Below, piece after piece: positions 11,813 through 61,159 of a stretch of 64,000 nucleotides of DNA; the first letter of the stretch is position 1; every line of letters begins with the position of its first letter. Position numbers and translations under genes: made by a program. Where the stretch lies: the sequence record PV636258.1. The stretch is one strand, 5' to 3'. Source of the DNA: a phage. The notes below the pieces were generated by a model. The model was not told the origin of the DNA and did not search any database. It saw nothing but the letters and a program-made list of their open reading frames with translations.

Positions 11813-11841
11813 ATGATAGCCGCAAGTTTTATTGAAGTAAA
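11813..11841 (-). promoter_or_regulatory. Sigma70-like early promoter (minus strand: TTTACT-N17-TATCAT)
   Basis: Located right after the hairpin, about 40 nt upstream of the ATG at 11769. Confidence 0.4.
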
Positions 11842-19845: not shown

Positions 19846-19874
19846 AATATACTGCCTTTTTAGAAGATGTAAAC
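19846..19874 (-). promoter_or_regulatory. Sigma70-like early promoter (minus: GTTTACA-N16-TATATT)
   Basis: Read directly upstream of the 18819..19778 gene. Confidence 0.35.
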
Positions 19875-21781: not shown

Positions 21782-21789
21782 TATAAATA
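21782..21789 (+). promoter_or_regulatory. T4-type late promoter core TATAAATA
   Basis: Exact TATAAATA 35 nt upstream of a GGAG-preceded GTG start at 21824. Confidence 0.35.
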
Positions 21790-26575: not shown

Positions 26576-26583
26576 TATAAATA
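26576..26583 (+). promoter_or_regulatory. T4-type late promoter core TATAAATA
   Basis: Exact TATAAATA 28 nt upstream of the ATG at 26612. Confidence 0.4.
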
Positions 26584-27921: not shown

Positions 27922-29547
27922 ATGGGTTTCAATATGTTAGACAACTTGCGTTGGTTTTACGGGCGCGTTGAAGACGTGAATGATCCCGATCAAAACGGGC
28001 GCGTCGCAGTACGCATCTATGGGGTGCACACGGAGGATACCACTCTCCTGCCTACAGAATTATTGCCTTGGGGTAAAATGCTTATGCCAGCATCTAACGC
28101 ATCCTCGGCAGGTTTAGGCTGGTCTCCGACGGGTATCACTGTCGGCTCTGACGTTATGGGGTTTGCTTTGGATGAAGCATATCAGAACATCCGTATTGCA
28201 TGGGTATGGCCAGCAGCAACACCAACAGATGGGTCAGATACAAACCCATTGGCGCTGGGCCAGGTCGTTCAATCTATAGAAAGGCAGAAGTATAATGCCG
28301 TCGAGAATGTTCCTGTTAAGATTGAGGATGAACCACAACCGGATCCACAACCACCAGTAGACGGTTATGATCCTGAGAAGTGGATGACCGTGGCTCGTGG
28401 GGAATTGGGCGTCAAAGAATATTCTGGTAAGTTCAATAACAACCCAAGGATATTGGAATATCATAAGACAACTTCCCTGGGGGCTTCAGAAGATGAAGTT
28501 AGTTGGTGTGCGTCGTTTGTTGGATGGGTTCTGATACAGGCCGGATATACATCAACACGTTCTGCTTTGGCTCGCTCATATCTACAATGGGGGTCTCCTC
28601 TGTCAGAACCACGTTACGGCGCTGTTGTAGTGTTCCGGCGCGGGAACAACCCGACATTCGGTCACGTTGCATTCGTTCAGAAATTTGACGCCAACTACGT
28701 TTGGTGTATCGGGGGAAACCAATCCGATTCTGTGAAGGTGAGCCGTTTTAGCCGCTCATCCGTGTTGGGTTATCGTTGGCCAGGTCCAGCAACTACAGCT
28801 TCAGCAGCTCCGGCACAACAAAACGGTAAATGGTCTGAACCTATTCCAGATCGTACCCCGAAAGTCCAAGAAACACCGCCTCCTTCTGGTCGTGTTCAGG
28901 ATATTGACAACACAGGAGAGGTATCGGTTCCTTCGGCTGGGGGGTCTCGTTATCCATACAACAATGTTATGGCTTCTCGCGCTGGGCATATTATGGAGGT
29001 CGATGACACTCCAGGCGGGGAACGTTTGCATTGGATGCACTCTTCTGGGTCTTATAAGCAAATGCTTCCTGACGGTGATGTTGTTAATAAATCAGTCAAA
29101 GATCATTATGACCTAACGATGTTCGACAAACGTTATTATGTGGGGCGCGATCATAACCTGACTATCGGCGGGACTGAAGTACAGCGTAAGACAGGAGAAG
29201 TTTACCACTTGCACTCTTCTAACTATTCCAATGTGGTCGCTGGAACAGCGTTGATGAAATTTTCCCAATTGGCTGAGATACAGGCACAGAACGTGTTGCG
29301 TCTCATCTGTGAAATGTTTGAAGTGTCTAACACTTTGAAGGTTCCTAAGATACTGGCAACTGAAATAATTTGCGATAAATTATCGGTCGCACAGACTATT
29401 GAAGGCAACATCAAATATGCTGAAGGCGCTGGTCGCGCCGCCTCACGTGCGGGGGCAACTCCTGTAACAACTACAGGCCCAGGTCCAATTGATATAAAAC
29501 CGGAGTTAGAGGATAACGGTGGCAATTTTGGTGGTAAAGGCGCATGA
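27922..29547 (+). CDS. 5: Baseplate central spike/hub protein, gp5-like, with CHAP/NlpC-P60-type cell-wall hydrolase domain
   Basis: N-terminus LRWFYGRVEDVNDP..GRVAVRIYGVHTEDTTLLPTELLPWG parallels the T4 gp5 OB domain; middle domain has Cys in SWCASFVGW and His in GHVAFV. Confidence 0.7.
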   Translation: MGFNMLDNLRWFYGRVEDVNDPDQNGRVAVRIYGVHTEDTTLLPTELLPWGKMLMPASNASSAGLGWSPTGITVGSDVMGFALDEAYQNIRIAWVWPAATPTDGSDTNPLALGQVVQSIERQKYNAVENVPVKIEDEPQPDPQPPVDGYDPEKWMTVARGELGVKEYSGKFNNNPRILEYHKTTSLGASEDEVSWCASFVGWVLIQAGYTSTRSALARSYLQWGSPLSEPRYGAVVVFRRGNNPTFGHVAFVQKFDANYVWCIGGNQSDSVKVSRFSRSSVLGYRWPGPATTASAAPAQQNGKWSEPIPDRTPKVQETPPPSGRVQDIDNTGEVSVPSAGGSRYPYNNVMASRAGHIMEVDDTPGGERLHWMHSSGSYKQMLPDGDVVNKSVKDHYDLTMFDKRYYVGRDHNLTIGGTEVQRKTGEVYHLHSSNYSNVVAGTALMKFSQLAEIQAQNVLRLICEMFEVSNTLKVPKILATEIICDKLSVAQTIEGNIKYAEGAGRAASRAGATPVTTTGPGPIDIKPELEDNGGNFGGKGA

Positions 29548-31079: not shown

Positions 31080-31108
31080 AGTATAAGCGCAGGATTTATA
31101 GAAGTAAA
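31080..31108 (-). promoter_or_regulatory. Sigma70-like early promoter (minus: TTTACT-N17-TATACT)
   Basis: -35 overlaps the 3' arm/T-tract of the preceding hairpin. Confidence 0.4.
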
Positions 31109-31520: not shown

Positions 31521-31568
31521 GATATAGTCCTTCTGGTCAAATGTGGCGTTGTTGCCGTGACCTAGAAT

Positions 31569-31596
31569 ACTATAAACCAGGTTTTTGAAAAGTAAA
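31569..31596 (-). promoter_or_regulatory. Sigma70-like early promoter (minus: TTTACT-N16-TATAGT)
   Basis: Immediately follows the hairpin. Confidence 0.4.
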
Positions 31597-36338: not shown

Positions 36339-37133
36339 TTAGCAGAAACTCTTGTATGCTGCCGCCAGTTTAGTATCATACTGGTTTTTCGCATATGCCG
36401 GACCATTGTACCGACGAGCAAACTCGGCCCAATTCTTGTTCTTCAGGGCTTTCCACATATTGGCATCTGCCTTGATGAACTTGACAAATGCCAGAAGGTG
36501 AGCGCGTTCACCAGTCAGGAAATCAGTGAACATCTCTTTGGCATTTGAATAGCCACAGATTTGGCAGTTGAACCCCATGATCTGGAATAGGCCGTAGGAA
36601 GCACTCTCGTAAGCGCAGTCCTCGTCAAGGGCGATTGCACCCTGAAGGCGTTCCAACTCCGCGTCTCCGCCGATATACCCGCCAGAATTGGGGTTAACCA
36701 ATGTTGGATAGAGTTGGTACAGAGCATTGGCTCTTGCTTGCCCGAATTTGGCCGTCACCTTTTTGTACATGATGTGGCGCTCAAACAGAGTTTTGATCTT
36801 GCCAGTTTTGGTAAAACCCGTGCCACGGGATTCTACCTGATTCACAGCTTTCATACTGGCCAGCTCAACACCAAGTTCACGTGCTGCGTCAACCAAGTCC
36901 GCTTCGGTCAGATGTTCCTGGTGAGCGTCTCCAGCGTTTCGGATAGCATAGAAGGTCTTTGGCCCAGCAATACCATCAATAACCAATCCAGCACCTGCCT
37001 GAACGGATTTGACAGCATTCTCTGTTGCCTTACCAAATATGCCATCGGCTGTAAGAGAGAAACCGATTTTGTTGAGGCTTTGTTGAAGTGCTTTGACTTC
37101 AGAACCTCGGTTGCCAAGTTTTAGAATGGCCAT
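36339..37133 (-). CDS. Endolysin: N-terminal peptidoglycan-binding domain plus C-terminal muramidase-like domain
   Basis: N-terminus MAILKLGNRGSEVKALQQSLNKIGF (PG_binding_1-like repeat); C-terminal YGLFQIMGFN block; GGAGG SD before the ATG at 37133. Confidence 0.65.
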   Translation of the reverse strand: MAILKLGNRGSEVKALQQSLNKIGFSLTADGIFGKATENAVKSVQAGAGLVIDGIAGPKTFYAIRNAGDAHQEHLTEADLVDAARELGVELASMKAVNQVESRGTGFTKTGKIKTLFERHIMYKKVTAKFGQARANALYQLYPTLVNPNSGGYIGGDAELERLQGAIALDEDCAYESASYGLFQIMGFNCQICGYSNAKEMFTDFLTGERAHLLAFVKFIKADANMWKALKNKNWAEFARRYNGPAYAKNQYDTKLAAAYKSFC

Positions 37134-37200
37134 AAGAAAATACCTCCGCAATGTATGCGAAGGTATTTAAAGTGAAAGTCGAACTTGAGGAACTGCTGGG

Positions 37201-38342: not shown

Positions 38343-38371
38343 ATAATAGTGCATCATTATTGAAGAGTAAA
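38343..38371 (-). promoter_or_regulatory. Sigma70-like early promoter (minus: TTTACT-N17-TATTAT) with AT-rich upstream element
   Basis: Read directly; about 40 nt of A/T-rich sequence upstream of -35. Confidence 0.45.
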
Positions 38372-45096: not shown

Positions 45097-45124
45097 ATTA
45101 TACGTGGGTTATTGAAGAAGTAAA
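45097..45124 (-). promoter_or_regulatory. Sigma70-like early promoter (minus: TTTACT-N16-TATAAT)
   Basis: Consensus -10 TATAAT; -35 abuts the hairpin. Confidence 0.45.
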
Positions 45125-55201: not shown

Positions 55202-55993
55202 TTATTTGCCGACGTTCAGAATTTTACCTGAGCCGGATCCGTCAACGATCAGAGTACATTTCCCGCTGTTGGCGCAAGATTGCAACACCATGTTATATTC
55301 GTGTTGTAAATATTCAGATGTCAGAGATGTCGTCAGTTTCTGATTCGCCTTGGCTTCTTGGTCGCGAATTTCAACGTTCTTTCTTGCTGTATCCAAACGT
55401 TTGTCAGCCATGACATTATCACGGATAGATTGCTCAATCGAAGGATCTGTCAGCGCCTTTTTCACCAACACGCGTGTGATTGTGAACATGCCAGGCGCAG
55501 CAGTTTCCAATTGCTGCTGGGTGCGTTCCTTGATCATCTTTTCTAACTCAGCCCGTTGGGTGTGAATTGTCATAGAATCCAAAGAAGAAACGGCGTCCAT
55601 CGTTGAGGATGCTGCGGCGGTTTTAACCAGGTTGAATCCCACCGCTATCGTGCCGTCACCGAGTTCAGCGCTCTGACCTGCAAATTTGGTATGGAACCAA
55701 GGAACCTTCGCGACGTTCGGTGTGTAATAAACGTCCACATCCAGATCTTCCAAGGTCAGGTTGTCTTTGGCCTTTGGCGTCATTTTCGTCAGACTCACGA
55801 CGGCTTCTTTAGTCGTATAGACATCTACACTTGAAACGAAACTGGTGTAGATACCTGCGGTTACAGGGTTCATGTCCACTTCACCCCATTGGGTTCGAAC
55901 ACCGACGTTTCCTTCATCGATAACACCGCCGCAGCCTGAAAGAAGGCTTGTTGCTAGGACCATAATTGCGCCAAATACCAGTTTCTTGAACAT
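55202..55993 (-). CDS. Lipoprotein with SPFH/band-7-like domain (tentative)
   Basis: Signal peptide with lipobox LLSGC; following domain GNVGVRTQWGEV...DNLTLEDLDVDVYY is compatible with an SPFH fold; coiled-coil C-terminal half. Confidence 0.45.
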   Translation of the reverse strand: MFKKLVFGAIMVLATSLLSGCGGVIDEGNVGVRTQWGEVDMNPVTAGIYTSFVSSVDVYTTKEAVVSLTKMTPKAKDNLTLEDLDVDVYYTPNVAKVPWFHTKFAGQSAELGDGTIAVGFNLVKTAAASSTMDAVSSLDSMTIHTQRAELEKMIKERTQQQLETAAPGMFTITRVLVKKALTDPSIEQSIRDNVMADKRLDTARKNVEIRDQEAKANQKLTTSLTSEYLQHEYNMVLQSCANSGKCTLIVDGSGSGKILNVGK

Positions 55994-56202
55994 CAATGTA
56001 CTCCTTCAAAAATGTAAATATAAGCACCCAATGTGAGTGCAGTTATTGTAACCGAAGAAATCAGCAGTAGGAAAGTTACTCTCACCCGTTTGCGCCAACG
56101 TTTACTTCGGTAGATTTTAGTCTCTTTCAAGTATTTGAAAAAGAAAAATAAAATGAATGTTGAAATTACGAATATGAACAGATAACGGATTAACCCGATC
56201 AT
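55993..56202 (-). CDS. Small two-TM membrane protein coupled to the lipoprotein gene
   Basis: 69 aa from the ATG at 56202; two hydrophobic helices separated by a K/R-rich loop; stop overlaps the next start. Confidence 0.45.
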   Translation of the reverse strand: MIGLIRYLFIFVISTFILFFFFKYLKETKIYRSKRWRKRVRVTFLLLISSVTITALTLGAYIYIFEGVH

Positions 56203-56519
56203 ATTTCCCACCCTGTGCTACGCAGATGATCAAAATAATCGTTGAGTTCGTCAATATCTTCGATATCAACCCAACGATCATCCAGTCCCATATCATTTAG
56301 ATCTTCTTCAGTCAGATCATGTTGATAAATCTGAATGCCCGAAGCATTACAATAATCCGGCTTGATATTGTTGTTGAACTGGAACAAATCATAATCAGCC
56401 AGAGTATTCTTCAGGCGCTGCGCTTCTTCAAATGTTGGAACCTCAACATGAAAAGCGATCCCAGGAACCTGGGGAATATGCCAAACACGAAATTTAAGTT
56501 CAAATGGTTTATTCGACAT
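56199..56519 (-). CDS. Hypothetical acidic protein
   Basis: 106-aa ORF, ATG start. Confidence 0.4.
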   Translation of the reverse strand: MSNKPFELKFRVWHIPQVPGIAFHVEVPTFEEAQRLKNTLADYDLFQFNNNIKPDYCNASGIQIYQHDLTEEDLNDMGLDDRWVDIEDIDELNDYFDHLRSTGWEI

Positions 56520-58364: not shown

Positions 58365-58685
58365 TTATCTTTGATTTCCAACGAAATTAGTTGCAATTTC
58401 ACGGCACATAGTCAGATCTTTAATAGTCTGTTTGCTGTTGTCTGCGGCAGATTCCATCATAGATAAATCAAGCGCATTCTCTATCTGGTCCACACTATAG
58501 AGATCAAGGCGTTTCAATTCACCTTCATAATCAGATAAAAGAATTGATGTATCCTTATCATCCGGATGGAATTGTTGATATGTAGACAACCAAGCAGCAC
58601 AAATATTCAACTTACTGGCCGGAGCTGCCAATACTTGGGAAGACATGAAAGTGCACAGGAATAACAATAAGATTTTGATTTTCAT
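58365..58685 (-). CDS. Small secreted/periplasmic protein
   Basis: 106 aa with N-terminal signal peptide (MKIKILLLFLCTFMSSQVLA); start overlaps the upstream stop. Confidence 0.45.
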   Translation of the reverse strand: MKIKILLLFLCTFMSSQVLAAPASKLNICAAWLSTYQQFHPDDKDTSILLSDYEGELKRLDLYSVDQIENALDLSMMESAADNSKQTIKDLTMCREIATNFVGNQR

Positions 58686-59371
58686 CTTTCGTTCTCCTTC
58701 ATCATATTATCACAGTCAATTCTTGTTTGCTTGAGTTCACGGGAAAGCCTTGGATCATCAAGATTGACAGACAAATTAGTGGAAAGATCTTTCAAACCAT
58801 TCTGAACACGGTCTTCATAATAATGATCATTTTCCACCAGCCATGCTCTCAGGCCAAGGGCGCGAGTCCGCCATTCCTTTTTCAAACGTCGATCAGATTC
58901 TTGATCAGCACTGTATTCAAATACTCGGATACATTGGTTGCCATCATTGATGAGATCCAGCTGACGTCGGCCAACCTGCACACCTTTTTGTAATGCTGGA
59001 GAAGGAAGAGAACGGCACTGTCTTACGGTCATTCGTCCTTGTGTGACCATACGACCAGTCATGATGAGATCGCCAGCCTCCATGCCTCCTCGGTTAAATT
59101 CTTCGTCGTTCATATATCCTTTCAGGTTGAATGCGCCTTGCTTATATCGATTAAACTCGATACCAGCATTTACAACGGCATCTGTGACATTACCTGTGGC
59201 CCAGAGTTCAGCAAAGTTCTCTATGGAACCAGTTTTGTCTATAGCCACGGCTTGGGAGAACCCAGCACAGTAGGAAAGATCAGACCACAGTTTTTCACCT
59301 GTGGAATTCAGCTTGGCTGTGGCAGGAAGTGCCAGACCAGCCAGCACAACCGCGATGATTAAACGTTTCAT
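58682..59371 (-). CDS. Secreted/periplasmic protein
   Basis: From the ATG at 59371 with AAGGAG SD: signal peptide MKRLIIAVVLAGLALPATA; 229 aa. Confidence 0.5.
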   Translation of the reverse strand: MKRLIIAVVLAGLALPATAKLNSTGEKLWSDLSYCAGFSQAVAIDKTGSIENFAELWATGNVTDAVVNAGIEFNRYKQGAFNLKGYMNDEEFNRGGMEAGDLIMTGRMVTQGRMTVRQCRSLPSPALQKGVQVGRRQLDLINDGNQCIRVFEYSADQESDRRLKKEWRTRALGLRAWLVENDHYYEDRVQNGLKDLSTNLSVNLDDPRLSRELKQTRIDCDNMMKENER

Positions 59372-59399
59372 GGTGATTCTCCTTATTTCATTGGATAAA

Positions 59400-59429
59400 A
59401 TGATAGGGCTGTCACCATGTTGAGTAAAG
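59400..59429 (-). promoter_or_regulatory. Sigma70-like early promoter (minus: TTTACT-N18-TATCAT)
   Basis: Read directly upstream of the secreted-protein gene. Confidence 0.35.
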
Positions 59430-59455: not shown

Positions 59456-59905
59456 TCAGTATCGACTATCACTGACCGTTCTGTATCGCACACCCTGAAA
59501 CTGTTTAGCGAGTTTAACAAATTCCATCGCTGGCAAATCAACTTTGTAGACCTTCATGCGCTGTTTGCCGTCCATGTTCAACGCAGCGACAAATCGGTGA
59601 GAACCGTCAACAACGTAATTGTCAGAAGACACCCAAACTCGACCCATGGGCTTCTTATTTCTGATCTGCTTCATAATCTTCCAGACCTTCATTTTATTGA
59701 TTTCGTTCTGGGTAAGACGAAGCATTTTGATAGGCACTTGCGCAGCATCTATAGACACGCCGTTGTCTTCAAGATATTTGTGAAAATCTTCTTGTTTGTC
59801 GGCATCGATTTGCGGCATCGAAGAACGAGAAAGCCCGAGGTTCCCAACAGGAATCCTCAGGCCATTTATGATATTCATCCAGTCAATAAAGGATGTAAGG
59901 AACAT
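59456..59905 (-). CDS. ParB-like nuclease domain protein (tentative)
   Basis: 149 aa; block VVDGSHRFVAAL resembles the ParB/Srx DG.HR..A motif. Confidence 0.45.
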   Translation of the reverse strand: MFLTSFIDWMNIINGLRIPVGNLGLSRSSMPQIDADKQEDFHKYLEDNGVSIDAAQVPIKMLRLTQNEINKMKVWKIMKQIRNKKPMGRVWVSSDNYVVDGSHRFVAALNMDGKQRMKVYKVDLPAMEFVKLAKQFQGVRYRTVSDSRY

Positions 59906-59942: not shown

Positions 59943-60221
59943 TCATTCGGACTTAAACAGCAATTCGCGAACAGAAGTCCCAACGATATTCTGGGTGTTC
60001 AACAAACGAGTTAAATCATCCATGTCATATGCTGAATTGGTGATATGACGCAAGATAATCGCCAACATTCCCTCCAGCGCTCTCCGATTGTTATTCTCTT
60101 CAATGTCAAACTTAATTTCAACAAATCGAGATAGCATTCTGGATTGAGCATTTGTTTCGTTGGTTTTGCTCTGTATAATATCTTTGATTTCCGAACGAGC
60201 AATACTTCTTTGATCTGTCAT
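59943..60221 (-). CDS. Hypothetical protein
   Basis: 92-aa ORF, GAAGGAAC SD. Confidence 0.4.
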   Translation of the reverse strand: MTDQRSIARSEIKDIIQSKTNETNAQSRMLSRFVEIKFDIEENNNRRALEGMLAIILRHITNSAYDMDDLTRLLNTQNIVGTSVRELLFKSE

Positions 60222-60273: not shown

Positions 60274-60780
60274 TTATAGGGTAATAAGTGATACGGTAAA
60301 AACCATCGTCCCATCTGTTGCCATTTTTCTTGAAACTGGGAAGACGCGAGGCTGGCAGAATATCCATTCTTTCTCCATGGACGCCAAGTCCAGCATATCC
60401 ATTTCTGATTCATCGTCTTTGTTCACAAATTTTTCTAGAGAACCAAAGACATTAAGCCCCTCTGGGAGTCCGTTTCGATGTTTGTAACAAATGCGAGCAA
60501 CAGCTCTGGTTCCATACGATTTAGAAAATTGTTTGGCCACATGCTTCAATTCACTGAAGCTGAGACAAGAATCCCATGTCTGGAACATGTCGCCTCGTTC
60601 AAACATCATCTCTAAACGCACAACGTCCTCTTTAGGCAACCCACGATAAAGTGTGGTCATCTGCGGTTCGCGAAATTCTTGCACCAGATCACGGACGACA
60701 GGAGAAACAGTGCCAGGGCGCATAATATGGGACTTATCATGGACGAGGTAAAATAAATCTTGAATTTGTTGATCGGTCAT
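60274..60780 (-). CDS. Possible mono-ADP-ribosyltransferase (R-S-E type, ModA/ModB-like), tentative
   Basis: From the ATG at 60780 (168 aa): ordered candidate triad TLYRGL (Arg), CLSFSEL (S.S), MEKEW (E.E) with ART-like spacing. Confidence 0.35.
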   Translation of the reverse strand: MTDQQIQDLFYLVHDKSHIMRPGTVSPVVRDLVQEFREPQMTTLYRGLPKEDVVRLEMMFERGDMFQTWDSCLSFSELKHVAKQFSKSYGTRAVARICYKHRNGLPEGLNVFGSLEKFVNKDDESEMDMLDLASMEKEWIFCQPRVFPVSRKMATDGTMVFTVSLITL

Positions 60781-60806
60781 GGTGTAGTTCCTGCATTTCA
60801 AATCGA

Positions 60807-61130: not shown

Positions 61131-61159
61131 ATAATACGCATTTGCCTTATAGAAGTAAA
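61131..61159 (-). promoter_or_regulatory. Sigma70-like early promoter (minus: GTTTAC-N17-TATTAT)
   Basis: Read directly. Confidence 0.4.

Follow-up and report, generated by a model that had tools for sequence, protein, structure and literature searches.

A coupled pair of predicted soluble periplasmic proteins carried under a spanin label in a Salmonella Kuttervirus

The gene pair and its products

The stretch of DNA analysed here, referred to as the window, comprises 64,000 nucleotides (nt) of sequence record PV636258.1 and belongs to a Kuttervirus (Vi01-like, Ackermannviridae), a Salmonella phage. Its subject is a pair of consecutive genes on the minus strand whose orthologues are annotated as spanins in many records. 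The large gene (58682..59371; ATG at 59371, stop at 58682) encodes a protein of 229 amino acids (aa) and is followed by the small gene (58365..58685; ATG at 58685, stop at 58365), which encodes a protein of 106 aa. Stop and start codons overlap by 4 nt in the sequence ATGA (58682..58685, minus strand; TCAT on the plus strand), an arrangement that points to translational coupling. A Shine-Dalgarno sequence AAGGAG could be read on the minus strand upstream of each start codon, at 59379..59384 for the large gene, where it is the same in most loci, and at 58694..58699 for the small gene, where it falls within the 3' end of the large gene. The junction holding this internal site, ...aaggagaacgaaagATGA, is kept across loci. 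By its sequence organisation the pair is a translationally coupled bicistron. An earlier description of this DNA, made without database searches (the sequence-only reading), had reported two consecutive genes with overlapping stop and start; its coordinates and sizes (106 and 229 aa) were exact, and the strand (minus), which had gone unstated, is added here. The stretch covering the pair showed 98.7% identity to Salmonella phage Chennai and 95-98% identity to many other phages.

Signal-peptide cleavage was called by rules and a crude hydrophobicity sum, without a trained predictor. A signal peptide is predicted at residues 1-19 of the large protein (59371..59315, minus strand) and at residues 1-20 of the small protein (58685..58626, minus strand), and the N-termini read MKRLIIAVVLAGLALPATA/KLN and MKIKILLLFLCTFMSSQVLA/APASK, respectively, the slash marking the predicted cleavage. 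In both, a positively charged n-region leads into an uncharged h-region, 16 or 20 residues long, and positions -3 and -1 are taken by small residues; no match to the strict lipobox pattern or to the Kongari lipobox pattern was found in either window protein. Conservation was followed in 30 representatives of the large protein and in 43 of the small one, the latter consisting of 36 full-length 90%-cluster representatives and 7 more distant proteins. All 30 large proteins share one N-terminal layout: KR in the n-region, 16-17 uncharged residues with Pro at -4, and AxA preceding Lys. Between small-protein homologues the mean identity was 30% in the signal region versus 76% in the mature part; signals that lack a lipobox are always hydrophobic and end in AxA directly before the conserved mature start (A)P.SKLN.CAAW. 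A variable signal joined to a conserved mature part is what one would expect if the signal is cleaved off and constrained only in its physical chemistry. Both products are most likely exported via Sec, cleaved by signal peptidase I and soluble in the periplasm, and the claim of the sequence-only reading that they carry cleavable Sec-type signals and no lipobox was borne out by the rule-based features, both in the window and across the family.

A crude whole-genome scan of phage dinky, a close relative with ~205 genes, returned the pair as the only annotated genes with a soluble signal of the signal peptidase I type. They are adjacent, which would be expected roughly 1% of the time for two such genes placed randomly among ~205. 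Three other exported proteins of dinky are lipoproteins, of which dinky_39 and the SPFH protein dinky_68 were given by the scan and dinky_192 by the GenBank annotation only. One open reading frame (ORF) of dinky with a lipobox (108153-108389), seemingly overlapping a membrane-protein gene, was discarded as antisense and spurious. The phage probably has no soluble periplasmic proteins other than these two products.

The mature large protein (210 aa, 24 kDa) has two domains and a near-neutral charge, and it contains four invariant cysteines (35, 119, 147 and 220) as well as the motifs SYCAGF, GG..A.D.IMTG and CR[ST]LP.P. The mature small protein (86 aa, 9.7 kDa) is acidic (isoelectric point 4.5, net charge -6) and carries 2 prolines, a conserved core TYQQFHPDDKDTSILLSD.EGE.KRLD and two invariant cysteines, C29 in the first predicted helix and C94 in the last. 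From the even cysteine counts we infer that both proteins form intramolecular disulfides in the periplasm. The AlphaFold2 (AF2) model of the small protein reached a predicted local distance difference test (pLDDT) score of 83.7 and consists of a five-helix bundle (residues 25-39, 44-59, 65-71, 74-81 and 85-105). Foldseek gave nothing for this model in the PDB (best E = 3, no match a lysis protein), and its sole match in the BFVD was the orthologue of Erwinia phage phiEa2809. The matches returned for the 229-aa model, namely ferritins, TDO and Tai4 (4jur_O, E = 4.3), were set aside as meaningless for a low-confidence model. A small protein derived as a paralogue of one domain of the large protein was also considered and is unsupported (hhalign, 15% probability over 21 columns, S.L..CA[WF]).

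Homology searches remained within phages. The small protein matched phrog_3843 over positions 1-106 of 106 (E = 6.9e-58) and the large protein phrog_4260 over 1-229 of 229 (E = 1.7e-155); apart from these own families, the PHROG matches of the pair were two more PHROGs of unknown function and one borderline match. Pfam, NCBIfam and PADLOC scans of the pair and six neighbours gave no match for the pair, no enzyme motif or known binding domain was detected in it, and profile searches of PDB sequences with both proteins returned noise only. An exhaustive hidden Markov model search of 1.84 billion representatives yielded 10 proteins, all phage-like and none with a cellular annotation; four are about full length, one is a 126-aa protein made up of the N-terminal domain (N-domain), and the others are short partial or low-complexity sequences. 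The profile search with the small protein added 7 further near relatives and no cellular homologue. As far as these searches reach, both families are orphans.

The large protein was found by tblastn in 271 phage records, with 97% identity in CBA120 and 93% in Vi01; the hosts of these phages include Salmonella, Klebsiella, Escherichia, Dickeya, Shigella, Serratia and Enterobacter. A stop/start overlap of 4 or 1 nt was present in all 21 IMG/VR loci and also in two metagenomic loci (L028 and L029), the most distant relatives located. There the identity of the large proteins falls to 32-37%, yet signal peptides are retained by both partners and the small partners are without a lipobox. For the distant relatives P0068 and P0069, whose contigs were taken by exact look-up, the IMG/VR and metagenome scans gave no match. 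Strict coupling and co-inheritance down to ~32% identity argue for joint action of the two proteins, which probably form a stoichiometric complex. In phages of the Serratia phage phiMAM1 type (L022/L023, 5977-6683) the large protein is reduced to 126 aa, that is to the N-domain alone (about residues 20-134), and the coupled small partner is kept. Region 43-60 of that small partner differs markedly from the Kuttervirus proteins. This region could be a contact surface for the C-terminal domain (C-domain) that the phiMAM1 type lacks.

The spanin annotation and its origin

The names given to the pair in GenBank and RefSeq range over 'hypothetical', 'i-spanin', 'o-spanin', 'Rz-like spanin' and 'putative lipoprotein'. 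Among the PHROGs, phrog_3843 is labelled 'Rz-like spanin' and phrog_4260 is of unknown function, and a comparative paper of 2024 lists the pair as core 'Rz-like spanin' and 'putative i-spanin' (PMC10892097). The source of the label appears to be the entry of phage Marshall in SpaninDB (Kongari et al. 2018, PMC6139136), the only pair of this family entered there, as two singleton families. This entry records 0 coiled-coil segments and a helix content of 35% for the large and 56% for the small protein, and it bears the curator remarks 'Too long?' and 'taking his word!' (PMC6139136). Table 10 of the same paper counts Vi01, SFP10, SJ2, SJ3, Maynard, CBA120, PhaxI, ECML-4, AG3 and Dickeya RC-2014 as spanin-less (PMC6139136), and the announcement of phage Mutine, from the same centre, stated that no spanin could be reliably identified. 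Since phages carrying orthologues of the window genes were tabulated as spanin-less, the specialists who defined the spanins did not accept these orthologues as such.

That the pair is nevertheless a genuine two-component spanin, as many records have it, is suggested by its layout, which fits the 'separated/overlapped' class (larger gene upstream, smaller gene downstream, both with N-terminal export signals), by the Marshall entry with its lipobox, by the label of phrog_3843 and by the fact that neither the literature nor the crude scan of dinky offers another candidate in these phages. The adjacent-gene architecture, with an ATGA overlap and the larger gene upstream, is indeed present, but it is not specific to spanins, and the remaining features point elsewhere. 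The small protein of Marshall starts with MKCKILLLMVLIAG/CVNAAPPSK and has a real lipobox (LIAG/C). Such a motif was found in only 7 of the 43 small-protein representatives (P0008, P0009, P0014, P0022, P0023, P0025 and P0032), six of them with the Marshall-type I[AV]GC (LIAGC or LIVGC) and one with ISSC, and in 3 of the 21 IMG/VR loci (L012, L013 and L015, Marshall); none occurs in the window protein or in any distant member, all of which have an AxA site at the position that aligns with it. The lipobox of the Marshall subclade (I[AV]GC or MAGC) precedes by five residues the AxA site that other members use, and the ISSC of P0032 is unrelated to it. The Marshall-type lipobox is a derived trait of one subclade, and depending on the phage the small protein is probably either tethered by a lipid or soluble.

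The large protein, for its part, lacks the transmembrane (TM) anchor of an inner-membrane spanin subunit: its 16-17 uncharged residues are bounded by Pro at -4 and AxA, and the best 19-mer scored +4.2 kcal/mol in a crude position-independent Hessa sum (+2.6 to +6.5 in distant homologues), against -1.5 kcal/mol for an Rz-type anchor from the SpaninDB table on the same crude sum. The loss of the whole C-domain in phiMAM1-type phages is hard to reconcile with a periplasm-spanning role. Further, the model of the small protein is a compact bundle of helices and its sequence has just 2 prolines, the promoter of the pair is of an early type (see below), and the endolysin gene (36339-37151; PG_binding_1 and PF11860 Muramidase) is located 21 kb from the pair. 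The literature searched contained no experiments on any orthologue, including lambda Rz/Rz1 complementation. On the sequences compared, the anchors that define a two-component spanin are absent from the window pair and from the family as a whole, and because neither product has such an anchor we regard a spanin function as very improbable. Instead, we hold with high confidence that the two genes encode a soluble, coupled, non-spanin periplasmic pair.

The pair itself has long been sequenced and named; what is new is the evidence against the spanin name and the candidacy for periplasmic functions. The sequence-only reading was silent on the spanin label, and its description of the products as secreted proteins that are not lipoproteins corrects a widespread annotation, one that apparently spread through GenBank, RefSeq and PHROGs from a single doubtful student annotation. 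As a result of this label, outer-membrane disruption in this family seems to be solved, while in fact it probably is not.

Promoters, neighbouring genes and the lysis and tail enzymes

A sigma-70-type promoter-like site (TTTACT-17 nt-TATCAT) is situated at 59400..59428 on the minus strand, 29 nt upstream of the start of the large gene. In loci of the Kuttervirus, Limestonevirus and Taipeivirus type both hexamers are conserved, the -10 one as TATCAT or TACTAT, and the spacer sequence between them and the -35 hexamer is variable. The conserved TTTACT-17-TAnnAT promoter leads us to infer that the pair is transcribed early by the host RNA polymerase. The motif TTTACT-N16-18-TAnnnT was found 8 times in the window versus 1.12 expected, a 7-fold enrichment, always on the minus strand, the one that carries the early genes, and always in intergenic positions. 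The sites of this class (TTTAC[TA]-N16-18-TAnnnT) are located at 61159..61131, 59428..59400, 45124..45097, 38371..38343, 31596..31567, 31108..31080, 19873..19846 and 11841..11813. Several follow directly after GC-rich hairpins, and many are succeeded by a leader of the form ...ttgaaa...ctacat[ct]ATG. The early promoters of ViI-like phages were reported to be not identifiable by informatics (PMC3184105), and the class described here may be the missing one.

The T4-type late motif TATAAATA occurs in exact form at two positions of the window, 21782-21789 and 26576-26583, both on the plus strand, each ~30-35 nt ahead of a baseplate gene on that strand (tail-tube initiator and hub subunit); it was not found in exact form upstream of the pair. 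Its placement fits gp55-type late transcription, previously reported as unidentified for this family. No Ackermannviridae transcriptomes were found in the literature. In the published proteome of Sajous1 virions purified in caesium chloride (CsCl), the two proteins of the pair (gp193 and gp194) were not detected.

Downstream of the pair and on the same strand follow two unknown genes, a gene of the P22 gp17 family annotated as 'superinfection exclusion' (PF17420, E = 9e-50), the 2-TM gene (55993-56211, minus strand), whose 72-aa product has two hydrophobic segments, and, overlapped and preceded by the latter, the gene of an SPFH/Band_7 lipoprotein (55202-55996, minus strand; lipobox LLSG/C, Gly at +2). 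The 2-TM and SPFH genes lie 2.2 kb downstream of the pair. In L029 (6028-7028) the 2-TM and SPFH genes directly follow the secreted pair. The gene order suggests that the pair and the 2-TM/SPFH unit belong to a larger envelope-directed gene cluster. Another candidate is a periplasmic role unrelated to superinfection. The pair might, for example, modulate a protease, a peptidoglycan enzyme, an outer-membrane receptor or some other factor of the host envelope and so protect the infected cell or its progeny phages, perhaps in concert with the 2-TM and SPFH proteins. The direct succession in L029 agrees with this, as do the lack of a strong terminator between the pair and the 2-TM/SPFH genes of the window and the status of an orphan family without informative relatives. 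The linkage to SPFH is, however, not universal, phiMAM1 having a different small lipoprotein at that place and, over the 6 kb inspected, no gene for SPFH, and an enzyme motif or known binding domain was not found in either protein. We consider such a role possible, though on balance unlikely.

The genes upstream of the pair provided some additional observations. The 149-aa gene just upstream (59456-59905, minus strand), named 'structural protein' in relatives, aligns with an inner part of phrog_2859 (740 positions) and shows weak similarity to ParB-like nuclease families; it still adjoins the pair in phiMAM1, and the genes at that position in L028 and L029 are of similar size (152 and 155 aa). 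A 92-aa ORF (59943-60221, minus strand) gave weak matches to RmrT (PADLOC) and to a ClpXP-sensitive toxin of the spr1630 family (E = 0.003-0.011, far below cut-offs), which are probably due to chance. The ORF at 60274-60801 (minus strand) is similar to the C-terminal end of phrog_832, a family labelled 'RNA polymerase ADP-ribosylase' (E = 1.5e-16, profile positions 1265-1425 of 1480); its orthologue in dinky is labelled pyrimidine dimer DNA glycosylase, and the two annotations conflict.

As for the tail, the gp5-like baseplate hub protein (27922-29547, plus strand) carries a Gp5 OB domain followed by a CHAP domain (cysteine peptidase/amidase) and has no lysozyme domain. The cell-wall enzyme of the hub and the muramidase endolysin are thus of different kinds.

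Candidate roles and comparison with known systems

At high multiplicity, phage CBA120 was reported to undergo a lysis inhibition like that of T4, in which lysis comes late and bursts are far larger, and its authors noted that ViI-like phages have no known holin or antiholin (PMC3184105). A periplasmic antiholin or sensor, formed by the pair or by the small protein and serving a lysis inhibition not homologous to that of T4, would bind the periplasmic part of a holin and delay lysis once superinfection is sensed. It would account for the lysis inhibition of CBA120, which has the pair and neither a known holin nor antiholin, and it would agree with the presence of rIIA and rIIB homologues and with the finding that the pair supplies the only predicted soluble periplasmic proteins in the dinky scan. 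The sequence-only reading had likened the small protein to periplasmic antiholins such as T4 RI, and this likeness held for size and periplasmic location but did not extend to sequence or fold. Its further suggestion, a function in lysis timing or superinfection exclusion, stays plausible and gains some circumstantial weight from the lysis inhibition of CBA120 and from the resemblance of the small protein to T4 Spackle in organisation. No specific kinship to RI was obtained, the PHROG and Pfam scans being without RI and the best Foldseek match having E = 3, and a comparison with the RI, RIII, Sp and Imm families gave no match (all PHROGs and Pfam, E <= 0.1). Moreover, the signal looks classically cleavable and not of the RI type, there is no known holin to act on, RI is a single periplasmic protein, and nothing ties the pair physically to any lysis gene. 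An antiholin function is therefore regarded as distinctly unlikely.

Among known systems, the nearest in organisation is Spackle of T4. In T4, superinfecting phages are excluded by Spackle, an inhibitor of the gp5 tail lysozyme; it is the product of an early gene, has a cleaved signal and forms a 75-aa helical bundle with a Cys29-Cys81 disulfide that binds a basic surface of gp5 (PMC7677548). The Spackle-like organisation of the small protein, the separate hub and endolysin enzymes and the lysis inhibition of CBA120 together favour a periplasmic role in responding to superinfection, the foremost variant being exclusion of the Spackle kind. The presence of the pair in CBA120 was counted in the same direction, as were the neighbouring genes of the envelope and superinfection type (P22 gp17 family, 2-TM and SPFH lipoprotein). 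This role is proposed tentatively, with somewhat less than even confidence. The pair would be made early, exported and released into the periplasm of the already infected cell, where it would bind or inhibit something that arrives with a secondary infection. As an analogue of Spackle, its target would be the CHAP peptidase of the incoming tail hub, and the outcome would be superinfection exclusion; possibly the pair could also provide the signal behind the lysis inhibition of CBA120. Because the hub CHAP domain differs from the muramidase endolysin, inhibiting the enzyme of an incoming phage would not have to interfere with the phage's own lysis.

Several results weigh against a response to superinfection of this kind. 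The pair has no sequence or fold likeness to Spackle, RI, Imm, or lysozyme or peptidase inhibitors in PHROGs, Pfam, PDB and Foldseek searches, and Spackle acts alone while the small protein here has an obligatorily coupled 229-aa partner. The AF2 model of this partner is poor (pLDDT 53.6, from a 30-sequence alignment). Cleavage of the signal peptides was predicted from rules and the crude hydrophobicity sum, and the timing of the promoter from its motif. Finally, the Marshall-type small protein, with its genuine lipobox, may be membrane-tethered in those phages.

A more far-reaching form of the proposal is that the pair is the missing periplasmic part of the Vi01-like superinfection response, a fold-novel two-protein analogue of Spackle and/or RI that blocks the CHAP-type tail hydrolase of sibling phages and/or signals lysis inhibition of the CBA120 type. 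In this specific form we judge it to be rather unlikely; if true, Ackermannviridae would have arrived at lysis inhibition or exclusion on their own, starting from unrelated proteins. The question has practical weight. Few phages are proposed as frequently as Kutterviruses for biocontrol of Salmonella and E. coli O157, and no holin or antiholin of theirs is known and no spanin accepted so far. Lysis inhibition and superinfection exclusion both bear on burst size, cocktail design and phage production, and for these periplasmic functions in Vi01-like phages the pair is the prime candidate.

The N-terminus of RI is a weakly hydrophobic signal-anchor-release (SAR) domain. In contrast, the signal of the small protein is strongly hydrophobic and ends in an AxA site, and no T-type holin is known in Vi01-like phages; what the two share is a similar size, a periplasmic location and, as CBA120 shows, a phage with lysis inhibition. 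Periplasmic inhibitors of the PliC/MliC type and the immunity proteins against type VI amidases are small exported binders which exist in soluble or lipoprotein-tethered forms. No relationship to them was detected, the match to Tai4 (4jur_O) having E = 4.3 with a low-confidence model, but the small protein likewise probably switches between soluble and tethered forms from clade to clade. With two-component spanins (lambda Rz/Rz1, T4 PseT.3/PseT.2; 'separated' in SpaninDB) the pair has in common adjacent overlapping genes, the larger one first, with export signals and, in the Marshall subclade, a lipobox on the small protein, while the TM anchor, lipobox, coiled coil and endolysin linkage of spanins are all absent from the window pair. 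Spackle differs in sequence, gave no Foldseek match in the PDB and is directed against a lysozyme, whereas the tail enzyme here is a CHAP peptidase. On the predictions made for the small protein, the two share an early gene, a precursor of ~100 aa with a cleaved Sec signal and a small all-helical mature form (75 aa in Spackle, 86 aa here). Each also has two cysteines, the first close to its N-terminal helix and the second close to its C-terminus (Cys29 and Cys81 in Spackle, Cys29 and Cys94 in the small protein), and the acidic character of the small protein recalls the binding of Spackle to a basic surface on gp5.

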